Assembly (NCBI GenBank): GCA_963781585.1
Contig: CAWAGQ010000013.1
Location: forward strand, 352,001 to 416,000
Origin: an uncultured Gemmatimonadaceae bacterium
GTDB lineage: Bacteria > Gemmatimonadota > Gemmatimonadetes > Gemmatimonadales > Gemmatimonadaceae
Reading direction: 5' to 3'
DNA length: 64,000 nucleotides
The notes beneath the pieces were generated by a model. It made no database searches and was not told where the DNA came from. It saw nothing but the letters and a program-made list of their open reading frames with translations. Below are positions 15,934 to 20,766 of this stretch, one piece after another (position 1 is the first letter of the stretch; each line of letters starts with the position of its first letter). The translations under genes and the position numbers were made by a program.

Positions 15934-16427
15934 AGGCACTCTCCGAGGAGGATCCGTGAATGTGGCAGGGAACCAGGGCGCCGGGTCGCGGGCCACCATG
16001 CACTGTCGATGGCTGGCGATCACGTCGGCGCCGCTCCGCCCCGATGTTCGCGGCGGCGCGTGCGCAAACCCCGACCGCCGCCGGTGACTACGGCGTGCGG
16101 TCCATCGGTTCGCGTTAGGGTGCGGAGGCAGAATCCGCGACTGCTGCGTCATTCGTGCATCTGGGGTCGAATAAGCTGCGACGTCCCCTCCGGATTCACA
16201 ATGGCGATTCAGCGGACACGGTGACCGGGCGACCGCGCGCCGGGACAAGCCGCGTATCGACGGCCTCGACTGTGCCGAATGCCTCCAACGGAACCGGCTA
16301 CCGCGCCGCTGGCGGTCGACTTGTGAACGGGAGGGTGCCGACACGGATTGCTCGACGCACGAGGTCCGTCCGCGACGCCGGCGCTGGGTGTCCGGGTGGC
16401 AGAGTCGGGTCCTTGCATCTGAAGGCC

Positions 16428-16456
16428 TTGACGTCGTTCGAGAGAGCCACGATCGT
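16428..16456 (+). promoter_or_regulatory. Putative sigma70-type promoter for the structured leader and the gene at 16622
   Basis: TTGACG (16428-16433), 17-nt spacer, weak -10 GATCGT (16451-16456); predicted TSS near 16463. Confidence 0.4.
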
Positions 16457-16462
16457 ACCGGC

Positions 16463-16624
16463 GGCGACGATCCGCGCCGAACCTCTCGAAGACTCCGCCC
16501 CAGCCGGAGTCCTGTGCGAGGCAAAGGGGGGGCATACTCCCGGATCTGTATCGTCGGTCCTTTGCGTCGCCATGGCGCGCTGCTGGGGAGAGGCCATGGT
16601 GCGCCCAAAGGAGACACGACGATG
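16463..16624 (+). ncRNA. Candidate cis-regulatory structured 5' leader (translational switch)
   Basis: Hairpin 16550-16623 pairs over the SD and AUG; competing upstream segments CGACGAT (16465-71) and GCAAAGG (16521-27); hairpin 16491-16511 whose loop CCCCAGC complements GCTGGGG (16582-88). Confidence 0.62.
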
Positions 16625-17341
16625 CCGATCAACAAGGATCTCAAGCGCCTGGTTCGCGCTCGCATGAGAAAGACGGGCGAAGCCTACACCGCCGCCCGCG
16701 CGCAGATCATCAGGAAGGGCAGGGCGCGGACCGCTCTGTCGACCGCCGACGCCACGCCCCCCCTCGCATCCGCTCCCGCGCCAAAGGACTACGCGAAGCT
16801 CGCCGGCACGAGCGACGCGGCCCTGAAGGCGAAGACGGGATGCACCTGGGAGCGCTGGGTGCGCTCGCTCGACCACCATGGCGCCGACAGGATGACGCAC
16901 CGCGACATTGCCGCGATGGTCCGGTCGAAGTACAGGATCGATGGATGGTGGTCGCAGACGGTCGCGGTCGGGTACGAGCGCATCAAGGGGTTGCGCGCGC
17001 GCGGCCAGCAGCGCAACGGGACGTACGAGATGACCAAGTCGCGGACGTTCGGGGTACCGGTGACGACTTTGTTTGCAGCCTGGGCCGATGCGGACATCCG
17101 CCGCCGTTGGTTGAATGGCGCGTCCGTGAGGGTGCGCCGGTCCACGGCGCCCAGATCGATGCGGCTCGACTGGACTGACGGGAGCATCGTTGCCGTCGGG
17201 TTCATGTCAAAGGGCAGGTCGAAGAGTTCTGTGGCCGTCGCGCACACGAAGCTGCCCGATTGGGAGACGGCGGACCGGCTCCGGAAGGAGTGGGCCGAGC
17301 GGCTGGAGGCGCTGGGGAAGGCCGTGGGCCAGACGTCATAG
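16622..17341 (+). CDS. Uncharacterised 239-aa protein: basic N-terminal helical motif + DUF4287-like domain + SRPBCC/START-like C-terminal domain
   Basis: ATG after AAGGAG; KDLKRLVRARMRKTGEAYTAAR; KAKTGCTWERW..LD..THRDIA..GWWSQTVAVGYE; TKSRTFGVPVTTLFAAWAD..VAVAHTKLPD..W. Confidence 0.75.
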   Translation: MPINKDLKRLVRARMRKTGEAYTAARAQIIRKGRARTALSTADATPPLASAPAPKDYAKLAGTSDAALKAKTGCTWERWVRSLDHHGADRMTHRDIAAMVRSKYRIDGWWSQTVAVGYERIKGLRARGQQRNGTYEMTKSRTFGVPVTTLFAAWADADIRRRWLNGASVRVRRSTAPRSMRLDWTDGSIVAVGFMSKGRSKSSVAVAHTKLPDWETADRLRKEWAERLEALGKAVGQTS

Positions 17342-17395
17342 GCCAAAGGCCATGGGCCAGAGGACAAGGTCACAGCCCAAGGGTCACAGGCCATG
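17341..17395. repeat. Degenerate heptamer tandem array, consensus GG(C/T)CANN, about 8 units
   Basis: ggccaaa-ggccatg-ggccaga-ggacaa-ggtcaca-gcccaag-ggtcaca-ggccatg, starting at the stop codon. Confidence 0.6.
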
Positions 17396-17412
17396 AAAGG
17401 ACATGGTTCGCC

Positions 17413-17451
17413 GCCTGACCCGGGATCGCCGCATCGGGTCCCGGGTCGGGC
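17413..17451 (+). terminator. 15-bp GC-rich stem-loop downstream of 16622-17341 (terminator or stability hairpin)
   Basis: GCCTGACCCGGGATC / GGTCCCGGGTCGGGC with 2 G-U pairs and a 9-nt loop; no clear U-tract. Confidence 0.5.
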
Positions 17452-17660
17452 ATCCCAGCCGTACGCAGCCCAAACCCTGAGCCATGATTGCGTTGTCCGG
17501 TCGCGAGATGAAGAGCTCGAAGCCGAAGCAGACGGTTGCTGCCGCTGCCCCATCCACGGCAGGGCCTAACGGGTTATGAGCAGGCCGCGCGGGAACTCGT
17601 CAGGCACTATCACCGTATCGTGGCCACCGATGCCAGTGCTGCACGTCCGGGTGGGGCGCC

Positions 17661-17719: not shown

Positions 17720-20143
17720 CTACCCGGCCGAGAGGCTCTTCCGTGCGTCGACACGCATGGCGCGGATCGCCGATGGCGCCGCAGTCAGGGCTGCCAGCCC
17801 GAGTACACTCAGGCTGACTGTCGCGAATACCAGGAGCGATCGCGGTGCGATCCCGAACACGAACGCCCGGAGGGCGCCCGCCAGCAGCCACGCCCCGACC
17901 AGTCCGGCCGCCACGCCGGGAATCGTCAGGCGTGCCGCCTGCGCGAGCACCGCGCGGCCCAGGTCACCCGGTGCGGCACCGAAAATGAGCCGCAACGCGA
18001 ACTCGCGCTCACGGTTGGCCACGAGCTGCCGCATGACTCCGTAGCTGCCCAGTCCGACAATGGCGACTGCCATCAGCGCGAATCCAAGCAGCACCAGGGC
18101 CCGCAGCCGGGCCAGGGCGTTGGCCTGCGCAACGAGTGTGTCGAGCGTCGTCGTCGCACTTGCCGCAACGATTGGATCGGTGGCTTTCAGCGCCCGCCGA
18201 AGTGCCGCGAGCGCGGCGCCCGGCGCGCTTCCGGATTCCACCACGATGGAGAGTCGCGACACCGACGTCTGCGCGAACGGCACATAGACCGTCTGGCCCT
18301 CCGGCGCGTTGTATCCGGCGTCCATCACATTGCCTGCGATGCCGACGATCTCGAGTGTCTGCGGAGGCGCCGTGCTGCTGGCGATCCGGAGGATCCGTTT
18401 GCCAACCGCGTTTTCTCCCGGCCAGTACCTGGCTGCCAGCGCGGCGCTCACGATCGCCACCGGCCTGGACGCGGAATCGTCGTGCGCGTCGAATGCCCGA
18501 CCGCGCAACACGGGGATTCCCATGGCGTGCAGATAGCCGGGTGAGACGCGGCGGAAATTGAACAGTGTCGGCTCGCCGGACGTGGAGCCGTCCGGGGCCG
18601 GAACCAGGAACCGCCCACCCCAAGGGACGTCGCCGACCGGCAGGGTGTTGGTGAAGCCGGCCATGCGCAGCGATCCGTCGCGTGCGAGGTTGGCCAGCAA
18701 CGCGTTACCGAAGGCGACCCTCGTCGCGTGCGATGGGTATTGCGCGTCAGGCAGCGTGATGCGTGCCACCACCTTGTGTGCCGAGATGAATCCGTCGGGC
18801 ACGTTGGCGAGATTGCGGAACGTGACGGCGATGAGTGCCGCGCTCGCGAGCACCACCACCGACAGCGCAGACTGCATGACCACCATCGCTTTCTGCCACC
18901 GGAGGGCCCCCGACGAAAGCGTCATTGCACGCGACGAGGCCCGCAGCGCCTCCACCACGTTGCTGCGGCGGCTGAACCAGACCGGCAGCGTGCCGGCAGC
19001 GAGCGTCGCGACCGCCGCCACGGCGGCACTGAGGAGGAGAACCGTGCCATCGAGGCGCAGGTTCGCCAGGAAGTAATCCGAAGACGTACCGACGTTCATC
19101 TGGCGCGCCGCCGAGACCGCGAGGAAGGCGACGACCGTGCCAAACATGAATCCCATCGCAACCACCACAGCGCTCTGGGTCAGGAGCAGCCGCATCACGC
19201 GATGCTGCCGCGCCCCCAGCGCCACGCGCACCGCCATCTCGGGCGCTCGCTCGAACCCCCACGCCATCAGCAGTGATGCGAGGTTGAGCACGGCGAGCAC
19301 CAGCAGCACGGCAGCACCCGCCTGAATGAGCAGGACGGTGGCGTCAGCGCCGGACAGGAGCTGCTCGCGCAGCGTCTGCGGCACGTAGTGATAGTCGCGG
19401 TTGTCGGGCGGGTTGGCGTCGCGCGTGCGACGGGTGAACTCCGCGAGTTCGGCCCGCACGGCCTCGCCTGATCTCCCGTCGGCGACGCGGCCGAACACGG
19501 TGAGGAGACGACCGCCGTTGATGGCCGCTCGCTGTGCCGGAGGAAGGTCGAACGGCTGCCAGATGTCCGTGGGTGCGGGCTGGGCAAAGCCCTCGGGCAT
19601 CACCCCGATGACGGTGGTGCGCACCCCGTTGATTGTGAGTGCGCGTCCGATGACGGACGAATCGCCGGCGAGCGCGCCGTTCCAGAACGCGTGACTCACC
19701 ACCACGACCGGCGCCGGTGACGGCCCCTCCTCCGCCGGCGTGAACGCGCGGCCGAGGATGGGCTGGACACGCATTGTCGGGAAGAAGCTGGCGGTGGCGA
19801 GCGTGGCCTGCAACGAACGAACTTCACCGTGGTCATCCCAGCTCGCGATGTTCGAGACGAGGCAGGTCACGTCGGCGAACGCGCGCTGCGTTGCGCGGAT
19901 GAGTTGGTAGTTCGGGTACGCATCGTTGAAGAGCACCATGCCGCGCCCCGGCAGGTCGCGCTCCGGGGCGATCACGATCAGCCGGTCGGGCTCCGGGACC
20001 GCGAATCCCGCGAACAGGAAGCCGCGGACAACGGAAAAGGCCGTGGTGTTGGCACCTAACGCGCCGGCCATGGTGAGCACGGCGACTGCCGCGACGGTCC
20101 GGCGGCGGGCCAGGAAGCGGATACTGGCGATGAGATCGTTCAT
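17720..20143 (-). CDS. ADOP-type duplicated MacB/FtsX ABC permease, without the N-terminal prefix domain
   Basis: Two MacB_PCD+FtsX units (EMAVRVALGA, REFALRLIFGA); ATG overlaps the stop of the CGNR gene (ATGA). Confidence 0.88.
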   Translation of the reverse strand: MNDLIASIRFLARRRTVAAVAVLTMAGALGANTTAFSVVRGFLFAGFAVPEPDRLIVIAPERDLPGRGMVLFNDAYPNYQLIRATQRAFADVTCLVSNIASWDDHGEVRSLQATLATASFFPTMRVQPILGRAFTPAEEGPSPAPVVVVSHAFWNGALAGDSSVIGRALTINGVRTTVIGVMPEGFAQPAPTDIWQPFDLPPAQRAAINGGRLLTVFGRVADGRSGEAVRAELAEFTRRTRDANPPDNRDYHYVPQTLREQLLSGADATVLLIQAGAAVLLVLAVLNLASLLMAWGFERAPEMAVRVALGARQHRVMRLLLTQSAVVVAMGFMFGTVVAFLAVSAARQMNVGTSSDYFLANLRLDGTVLLLSAAVAAVATLAAGTLPVWFSRRSNVVEALRASSRAMTLSSGALRWQKAMVVMQSALSVVVLASAALIAVTFRNLANVPDGFISAHKVVARITLPDAQYPSHATRVAFGNALLANLARDGSLRMAGFTNTLPVGDVPWGGRFLVPAPDGSTSGEPTLFNFRRVSPGYLHAMGIPVLRGRAFDAHDDSASRPVAIVSAALAARYWPGENAVGKRILRIASSTAPPQTLEIVGIAGNVMDAGYNAPEGQTVYVPFAQTSVSRLSIVVESGSAPGAALAALRRALKATDPIVAASATTTLDTLVAQANALARLRALVLLGFALMAVAIVGLGSYGVMRQLVANREREFALRLIFGAAPGDLGRAVLAQAARLTIPGVAAGLVGAWLLAGALRAFVFGIAPRSLLVFATVSLSVLGLAALTAAPSAIRAMRVDARKSLSAG

Positions 20144-20766
20144 CGGTCGCCTCGTCGGCGCCGGGCGCGCCGGTGGTAGGTGGCCATCTTGGCTCGGATG
20201 CCGCAACGCGCCATGCTGCACCAGCGCCGACTGTGGTTCTTCGTGCCGTCGAGAAAGAAGATCACGCACGCCGGATCGCTGCATTGACCGACGCGCTCCA
20301 GTGTGCCGCCGGTGAGCAGATCGCGGATCGAGGCCGCAATCGGTGCGAGTGGGCGGCGCGGGTCGCCGCCCGCAACCCGGTCTTCCGTCCGGAAGCGCCC
20401 GTGGTGCCAGACCAGGGTCGGAAGCAGGGGCCGGGTGGCGATGAGGTCGTTGGTCAGTGCGCCGAGCCGCCGGCATGCGCCGTCTTCGACGGCCGCTCGC
20501 GCCGTGACCCTCCCGAGAACGCGGCGCAACGCCCGGCGCAGGTCGCGTGCCGCGCGCAGCACGGTGCGGGCGTCCCGCTGCCGCCATCCGCGGACCGCGG
20601 CGCGCAGGTCAGGGGACGCGAGCACCCCCGCGGCGTCGAGCCAGCGCACCAGATCACGCGGTCCCTCCAGCCGGTCGACCGCCCGGCCGCCCGACATCAG
20701 CTCGGTGTTCGCGAAGTCGAGGCAGAGGACCCCACCGTCGAACACGAAACCGTCGCGATCCGCCAC
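20140..20766 (-). CDS. ABATE / CGNR zinc-finger domain regulator
   Basis: [12 protein letters not shown]-terminal [36 protein letters not shown] 20766 after GGAGG. Confidence 0.9.

Follow-up and report, generated by a model that had tools for sequence, protein, structure and literature searches.

Among the regulatory RNAs described so far, several share single traits with the RNA leader considered here, which precedes a gene for a protein with a DUF4287-like domain and an AHSA1/SRPBCC domain in a window of 64,000 nucleotides (nt) from an uncultured Gemmatimonadaceae bacterium (assembly GCA_963781585.1, contig CAWAGQ010000013.1, positions 352,001 to 416,000 of the forward strand; positions below are those of this window). 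The guanidine-IV (mepA) motif is also largely linked to one gene type. In the available part of PMC11611296, the loops of its sensor hairpin and of its expression-platform hairpin are proposed to kiss and to decide the genetic outcome, and on this partial account it offers the nearest working analogy to the kissing between sensor and platform hairpin loops in our leader. According to the same account its platform is a transcription terminator, and kissing with the ligand leads to read-through, whereas here the platform would be a hairpin that holds the Shine-Dalgarno (SD) sequence and the AUG, and the kissing contact is a 7-base-pair (bp) Watson-Crick helix inside a larger pseudoknotted three-way junction. 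Membership in guanidine-IV was rejected because no Rfam family, mepA included, matched. SAM-II, preQ1-II and guanidine-III, in which a pseudoknot occludes the SD, share with the leader the control of initiation through SD pairing and the long-range contacts, and the purine riboswitch shares the loop-loop contacts in a three-way junction; compared with these four, the leader has no match in Rfam 15 and is larger, with its P1 pseudoknot, three-way junction and 70-nt SD hairpin.

In ribosomal-protein leaders and the thrS operator, the gene's own product binds the mRNA leader, and one leader stands before one gene with its SD region occluded, the last two traits being found here as well. ColE1 RNA I-RNA II forms loop-loop complexes acting in trans between antisense RNAs; two fully complementary 7-nt loops meet there as in the present case, whereas here both loops lie within one mRNA leader. 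The lambda N-boxB system is called to mind by hairpin P3 of the leader, whose 5-bp stem and GNRNA pentaloop resemble boxB (the available part of PMC9830547 treats the loop family). In contrast to the product-binding leaders, thrS and lambda N, the N-terminal module of the protein encoded here also occurs on unrelated proteins, and the N-terminal half has no solved relative. The cmscan search that an earlier note, made from the sequence alone, had proposed yielded no Rfam 15 match at E <= 10 within 16428-16625 or at the leaders of 10 other loci. Literature on Gemmatimonadota riboswitches and structured RNAs, DUF4287 and SRPBCC, partly at the level of titles and abstracts, gave no description of this leader RNA, and term look-ups in the main texts, supplements aside, of a paper on 224 motifs (PMC5737381) and of bioRxiv 10.64898/2026.09.15.751765 brought up no mention of it.

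Our best reading is that the leader represents an undescribed class of cis-acting leader RNA for translational control, which is found throughout the Gemmatimonadota, always linked to one gene and preceded by a promoter that belongs to it. It is very probable that a conserved structured cis-regulatory RNA lies upstream of this gene. Its elements, together with the promoter and the gene, are as follows:

16428..16433, forward strand: -35 hexamer TTGACG
16451..16456, forward strand: -10 hexamer GATCGT, after a 17-nt spacer
16463..16478, forward strand: P1 hairpin, GGCG (16463-66) with CGCC (16475-78), from a register-free helix search
16469..16546, forward strand: long-range helix, GAUCC (16469-73) with GGAUC (16542-46), closing a three-way junction around P2 and P3 (RNAalifold)
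16480..16521, forward strand: P2a, potential pairing of CCUC (16482-85), within the invariant AACCUC (16480-85), with GAGG (16518-21)
16491..16511, forward strand: P2 hairpin, GACUCCG (16491-97) with CGGAGUC (16505-11), and its 7-nt loop CCCCAGC (16498-504)
16498..16588, forward strand: kissing loop, CCCCAGC (16498-504) with GCUGGGG (16582-88), joining the loops of two covariation-supported hairpins
16522..16541, forward strand: junction CAAA (16522-25) and P3 hairpin, GGGGG (16527-31) with CUCCC (16537-41), with the pentaloop GCAUA (16532-36)
16550..16623, forward strand: P4 hairpin, with base AUCGUCG (16550-56) with CGACGAU (16617-23) and apical loop GCUGGGG (16582-88)
16558..16612, forward strand: P4a within P4, anti-SD UCCUUUG (16558-64) with CAAAGGA (16606-12)
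16568..16601, forward strand: P4b within P4, CGCCAUGGC (16568-76) with GCCAUGGUG (16593-601)
16578..16592, forward strand: P4c within P4, CGCU (16578-81) with AGAG (16589-92)
16607..16613, forward strand: SD AAAGGAG, by direct reading of the sequence, as for the start codon AUG at 16622-24
16622..17341, forward strand: coding sequence of 239 amino acids, opening with the AUG at 16622 and ending with the stop codon at 17341 (open reading frame list)

All the sequence elements that the earlier note had pointed to are present, the single correction being that the AUG begins at 16622 and not at 16623. Its inventory had missed GAUCC:GGAUC, the GGGGG/CUCCC hairpin with its GNANA pentaloop, and the CCUC:GAGG helix.

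One genome per species was scanned with the protein, and at least 482 relatives were obtained among 597 matched stretches; the leader counts given below rest on the best 80 of these at least 482, all of them loci picked through the protein match. By their titles, 72 of the 80 belong to Gemmatimonadota or its orders and families, and 8, a small set of metagenome-assembled genomes, are labelled as other phyla (Acidobacteriota or Vicinamibacterales 5, Dehalococcoidia 2, Polarisedimenticolia 1). The leader spans about 160 nt between the promoter and the AUG. In 79 of the 80 loci, some 165 nt ahead of the start codon show a striking resemblance, although the proteins share only 49-70% identity with the query. 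From the leader alignment a covariance model (R1) was derived, which matched once per locus, at a constant position and with 114-190 bits (174 bits for the window). No second copy was detected by R1 across 522 kb, and with filters off the next best match in the 64-kb window reached only 11.3 bits (E 0.2). The earlier note had rested its case on the clustering of short matches; the support no longer depends on them, since conservation extends over the entire leader of the relatives.

Pair counts were made on the fixed columns of a MAFFT alignment of the 80 sequences (A2), in which a model of 49 pairs, both crossing interactions included, was compared with partners slid by 1-3 columns and with 500 shuffles. 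Standard pairs occupied 94.4% of the cells, as against 35-51% with slid partners; changes on both sides were seen in 32 of the 49 pairs, and none of the 500 shuffles reached the model on any of five measures. Moreover, RNAalifold on the plain MAFFT alignment found GAUCC:GGAUC, CCUC:GAGG, P2, P3 and parts of P4 unprompted, with compensatory changes in 23 of its 34 pairs. The fold of 16463-16650 in the window had a minimum free energy of -87.1 kcal/mol (-74.1 +/- 4.5 for 200 shuffles, z = -2.87, one shuffle being equally stable) and holds the long SD/AUG hairpin together with the GACUCCG/CGGAGUC hairpin. A covariation-supported structured domain in the 5' leader, as is generally expected of a riboswitch, is thus present, and about 35 unpaired or junction nucleotides are near-invariant across the 80 leaders.

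The 80th locus (L051) retains the 3' half only: its SD hairpin with the GCUGGGG loop and the gene are kept, and R1 scored 47.7 bits. At L051:2740-3000 the 3' end of a same-strand open reading frame lying upstream has taken the place of the promoter and the 5' domain, and the breakpoint falls within P3; L055, the sister of L051, carries a complete leader. Additionally, two leader subgroups can be recognized in A2, roughly L001-L045 and L046-L080, which track the protein tree. One form, whose proteins carry the motif KDLKRL, has a shorter upper P4 and an AUG paired through AUCGUCG:CGACGAU. In the other, whose proteins carry KDFKRL, the upper P4 is longer and GC-rich, the kissing loop is tightly closed by CGYC/GRCG, and the SD reads CCAAAGGAC.

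The tertiary contact that the earlier note had predicted between CCCCAGC and GCUGGGG is confirmed, since the two loops pair with compensatory variants across clades. Its 7 bp were paired in 99.6% of the cells. The consensus loops occur in 71 of the 80 sequences, and each of the 9 variants loses at most one pair: CCCCGGC/GCCGGGG in L024 and L043, UCCCGGC/GCCGGGG in L056, CCUCAGC/GCUGAGG in L016, CUCCAGC/GCUGGAG in L048, both loops one base shorter in L039, a U-G wobble in L074, a one-sided loss of one base with 6 bp left in L003, and an alignment insertion only in L042. In a quick FastTree tree of the proteins, L024, L043 and L056 stand in three different clades, each beside relatives with consensus loops. 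Judged from these sequences, at least six compensatory events in the kissing loop are apparently independent. The isolated loop-loop duplex has an energy of -13.4 kcal/mol. The extension of the contact proposed in the same note, CCUCUC (16482-87) with GAGAGG (16588-93), did not hold, being paired in 64.6% of the cells and not conserved; GAGAGG at 16588-93 is the variable 3' strand of P4c.

Covariation likewise backs the hairpin that buries the SD and the AUG. In P4a 90.6% of the cells were paired and all seven pairs showed double changes (7/7); the corresponding values were 90.5% and 4/6 pairs for P4b, and 88.1% and 4/4 pairs for P4c, while the base helix of P4 was 67-73% paired in fixed columns. 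The P4 region alone folds with a mean of -41.6 kcal/mol (standard deviation 4.7, 80 leaders). All folding energies here are nested, that is, both long-range contacts are ignored as pseudoknots, and these can only favour the closed state further. In the nested ensemble the unpaired probability of the SD had a mean of 0.12 across the 80 leaders, forced opening of the SD cost a mean of 8.0 kcal/mol (range 0.9-13.6). At least 2 nt of the AUG were paired in the P4 folds of 64 of the 80 leaders. P4a covaries and the P4 loop kisses P2, so that an expression platform is coupled to a conserved domain, as in riboswitches in general. We consider it likely that sequestration of the SD and the AUG is the mode of action.

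In the 5' domain, P1 forms at least 4 bp in 78 of the 80 sequences, with a mean of 4.41 bp as against 3.48 bp when the 5' strand was shuffled (register-free script), and was 85% paired in the MAFFT columns, in which part of the alignment is mis-registered. A few swaps were seen in it (GGCC:GGCC in L029 and L030, and CGGCG:CGCCG and UGGCG:CGCCA as extra pairs), and because the element is mostly invariant its support is modest. The P1 loop carries GAUCC, the partner of the downstream GGAUC, and an H-type pseudoknot is therefore formed by the two helices. This long-range helix was paired in 98.0% of the cells with double changes in 5/5 pairs, its variants including GAUCA:UGAUC, GAUUC:GAAUC, GAUCU:AGAUC, GGUCU:GGACU, CGUCC:GGAUG and AAUUC:GGAUU. 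P2 was 95.1% paired with double changes in 7/7 pairs. P2a was 100% paired with all four pairs invariant in 80/80 sequences, and covariation is accordingly uninformative there. Of the junction nucleotides, AACCUC and GAGGCAAA are invariant; CAAA is present in 80/80, reading CAAA in 79 and CAAAG in the row of the window, which has an extra G.

P3 was 100% paired, with double changes in 1 of 5 pairs, and its G-U pair is replaced by A-U or G-C. The first loop position is G in 80/80, the third A in 78/80 (one G, one C) and the fifth A in 80/80, whereas the fourth is free (C41/G23/U12/A4), and the pentaloop matches the GNRNA pattern at the sequence level in the 80 leaders. According to the available part of PMC9830547, GNRNA loops adopt a GNRA-like fold with the second N extruded, and the lambda N peptide/boxB complex is cited for this loop in its reference list.

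Upstream of this domain, the promoter that the earlier note had placed so as to start transcription near 16463 is borne out by -35 and -10 elements at a fixed distance in 67 of the 80 loci. TTG[AC]C stands 52-57 nt 5' of the invariant AACCUC in 65 of the 80 loci and 45-46 nt in 2 more. Among these 67 loci, the -10 element has C at position 1 in 60, A at position 2 in 63, T at position 3 in 49 and T at position 6 in 63. A simple sigma-70 consensus scan of the window did not call a promoter at 16428-56; as that scan was silent, the claim rests on conservation across loci. Transcription would begin at about 16462-64, just where the first helix sets in. As a side observation, the family consensus of the -10 element, CATnnT, has C rather than T at position 1, and the -35 element reads either TTGAC or TTGCC, depending on the leader subgroup.

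A database search with the protein gave 5729 relatives at E <= 0.001. Its AlphaFold2 model, built from an alignment of 38 sequences, has a predicted local distance difference test score (pLDDT) of 88.0, and its parts are as follows:

residues 3-35: basic helical hairpin in the model, with a nearly invariant basic motif
residues 36-52: disordered linker in the model
residues 57-121: DUF4287-like five-helix domain, with an invariant WW-Q-V-VGYERIKGLR stretch
residues 135-238: AHSA1/SRPBCC alpha/beta domain

The architecture read earlier from the translation, in which a basic helical N-terminus precedes a DUF4287-like domain and a fold of the SRPBCC type, thus agrees with AlphaFold2, Foldseek and Pfam on relatives. 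Foldseek against the PDB gave 39 chains at E <= 0.001, the top ones all AHSA1/START-like (1xn6, Aha1, YndB, CalC and others, E ~1e-4); the modelled C-terminal domain superposes on AHSA1/START structures, and AHSA1/SRPBCC membership follows from the START-like helix-grip fold of the model (pLDDT 88). In Pfam the window protein itself stays below the cut-offs, with 16.1 bits for DUF4287 (PF14117; E 0.011, cut-off 27) and 14.3 bits for AHSA1 (PF08327; cut-off 22.1). AHSA1 was detected in 32 of 38 relatives and DUF4287 in 12 of 38 at E <= 0.01, with 33.8 bits for DUF4287 in P0254; among atlas features, DUF4287 clusters reached only 0.80-0.82. The N-terminal half alone (model pLDDT 77.9) found nothing above chance level in the PDB (best fold E 5.2, best sequence E 0.8).

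The first 26 residues of the protein hardly vary and are strongly basic. With the first 35 residues (16622-16726) as the query, 354 cluster representatives were found, with the motif KDLKRLVRARMxKTGEAYTAAR. Pfam was run on 46 of the 354 representatives, namely all those of at least 148 residues, and these mostly belong to the same family as the window protein. The motif is fused to Clp_N repeats in P0131 (336 amino acids) and to DUF3775 in P0188 (166 amino acids), both of which have otherwise nothing in common with the window protein; because it is also found on such proteins, it behaves as a mobile module for which there is no Pfam model. P0149, P0150 and P0252 begin with family sequence and then diverge, which probably reflects assembly or frame artefacts. 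No description of the three-part architecture with a basic N-terminal module was found in the papers that the literature searches brought up.

Taken together, the elements suggest the following mechanism, the regulation itself being deduced from the sequence. The transcript opens with the compact 5' domain, in which the P1 loop pairs with GGAUC some 70 nt downstream and closes the three-way junction with P2 and P3. Next along the RNA comes the very stable P4, with the SD paired to the anti-SD and usually the AUG paired as well, and its loop kisses the P2 loop. In the default state translation initiation would be blocked. The 5' domain may act as a sensor that conveys its state of folding to P4 by way of the kissing loop, and the invariant GCAAAGG may additionally compete for the anti-SD; a trigger would then shift the balance between the docked, closed P4 and an open SD.

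As to this trigger, three readings were ranked, with a small-ligand riboswitch in first place, followed by autoregulation through the gene product and, last, by a different trigger or a constitutive element. Under the first, a small molecule or an ion would be sensed and the leader would be an orphan riboswitch class acting on translation; we give this trigger, and likewise the statement taken as a whole, somewhat less than an even chance. It is put first because the invariant junction nucleotides, the pseudoknot, the multi-helix junction and a platform overlapping the conserved fold are riboswitch-like, invariant junction nucleotides and two long-range contacts being typical of ligand-binding aptamers, and also because a ligand-binding SRPBCC fold makes up the C-terminal part of the regulated protein. 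Several points, on the other hand, weigh against it. The genomic context suggests no ligand, there being no conserved neighbours. Linkage to a single gene, with no second copy in 522 kb, is as typical of protein-binding autoregulatory leaders as it is of riboswitches, if not more so. The stability of P4 makes a purely thermodynamic switch hard to picture. Furthermore, the alternative pairing of an open state shows no covariation, and of the SD-open folds computed for the 80 leaders, only 7 have the anti-SD paired with the competitor (nested-energy folding).

That open state had been proposed in the earlier note as two competitor helices in the leader, and it did not fare well, since without covariation this two-helix fold was also no better than shuffles on most measures. 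The competitor GCAAAGG (16521-27) with CCUUUGC (16559-65) was pairable in 89.4% of the cells with 0 double changes, and changes in the anti-SD are matched by the SD and never by GCAAAGG (e.g. L044, L065); CGACGAU (16465-71) with AUCGUCG (16550-56) was paired in 65.2% of the cells. The proposed open fold is therefore possible, but unsupported. It could still play a kinetic, co-transcriptional role, since in the order of transcription GCAAAGG precedes the anti-SD, which in turn precedes the SD.

The alternative that survives best is an autoregulatory operator, in which the gene's own product would bind the leader and stabilise the closed, docked state; we hold this reading to be possible, if rather unlikely. 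Binding would take place through the basic N-terminal hairpin and/or the DUF4287-like domain, possibly gated by a ligand of the SRPBCC domain, with P3 as a boxB-like docking site for an arginine-rich helix. Such an operator agrees with the stand-alone unit of leader, promoter and gene, present in one copy per locus with none further in 522 kb, and with the nearly invariant, very basic N-terminal residues modelled as a helical hairpin. P3 also fits GNRNA, the loop family for which lambda N/boxB is cited in the available part of PMC9830547, but such a loop could equally form an RNA-RNA tertiary contact. Since no solved structure resembles the N-terminal half, it may bind nucleic acid, although its search against the PDB brought up no RNA-binding fold. 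In addition, the N-terminal motif is mobile (354 representatives; fusions to Clp_N and DUF3775), pointing to a generic rather than a leader-specific partner, which weakens the fit to leader-specific binding while being still compatible with it.

We regard as unlikely a constitutive or otherwise triggered element, which would set a low basal translation or stabilise the mRNA, or would respond to a trans-acting RNA, a helicase or chaperone, an RNase or temperature. The extreme stability of P4 (mean -41.6 kcal/mol) would suit it, as would the lack of a supported alternative fold and the locus that lost the 5' domain yet keeps P4 and the gene (L051); the partners of the N-terminal module, Clp_N and AHSA1, may hint at a stress or proteostasis theme. 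Nevertheless, about 35 near-invariant nucleotides and two compensated long-range contacts exceed the needs of a thermometer or a stability element, and physiological temperatures would be too low to melt a hairpin of -42 kcal/mol.

It is further conceivable, and in our estimation quite doubtful, that the switch has two layers, in which the SRPBCC domain would sense a hydrophobic ligand and gate the binding of the N-terminal helix or the DUF4287-like domain to P3, thereby locking or unlocking the docked SD hairpin. If true, this would be a ligand-controlled one-component regulator that binds RNA, with a leader class across a whole under-studied phylum.

Lastly, it is extremely improbable that the conserved region is a coding N-terminal extension or that its pairings are due to chance in GC-rich DNA: the frame in the window is open from a GTG at 16388, and the database proteins P0129, P0140 and P0260 start upstream and read through the leader, but the coding reading is refuted by in-frame stops in 43 of the 80 leaders, by AACCUC-to-AUG distances of 136-148 nt that fall in all three mod-3 classes (32, 31 and 17 loci), and by compensatory substitutions in the helices, with the SD and AUG conserved at the annotated start. 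The read-through in these three proteins, like the window's open reading frame from 16388, is a gene-calling artefact. In such gene calls the translated leader appears as a false N-terminal extension of the type '...PNL...EAKGG...' (16388-16621 in the window), so gene callers sometimes misread the leader as a part of the protein.

Gemmatimonadota are abundant soil bacteria, in which, to our knowledge, almost no RNA regulation has been described. The leader combines an H-type pseudoknot and a three-way junction with a covariation-supported 7-bp intramolecular kissing loop onto an SD hairpin. Should the leader prove to be a riboswitch, it would be an orphan class, and its ligand would suggest a function for a DUF4287-like plus SRPBCC family of thousands; should it be an autoregulatory operator, a new RNA-binding module, also attached to Clp_N and other domains, would be at hand. 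Either way, it offers a clean system, ready for compensatory mutations, for the control of translation initiation by loop-loop docking.

With respect to its surroundings, the gene lies between two genes on the other strand:

ending near 15950, reverse strand: TonB-dependent receptor, divergent to the leader side
17720-20200, reverse strand: MacB/FtsX-type permease

Across 81 loci no neighbour gene family was common to more than 6, and sides and orientations vary. An operon partner or conserved synteny was accordingly rejected (at most 6 of the 81 loci share any neighbour family), and because there are no conserved neighbouring genes, the promoter, leader and gene form a self-contained monocistronic module. 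A plasmid collection gave neither a protein nor a DNA match. The roughly 480 nt at 15950-16427, which separate the leader promoter from the start of the divergent TonB-dependent receptor gene, contained no Rfam match and no convincing open reading frame.

Downstream of the gene, a GC-rich hairpin (CCCGGGAUCGCCGCAUCGGGUCCCGGG) stands at 17419-17447 between the convergent gene ends, without a U-tract behind it. A weak ROSE_3 match at 17419-17489 (20.5 bits, E 0.25, cut-off 43) was judged to be due to chance. Directly after the stop codon, 17342-17400 holds short direct repeats, with GGTCACAG twice and GGCCA/GGCCATG several times, and in P0001, the closest relative, the C-terminus is extended (…HRPGAKGHRPKVIGQRS), seemingly by read-through of a stretch similar to 17342-17400.

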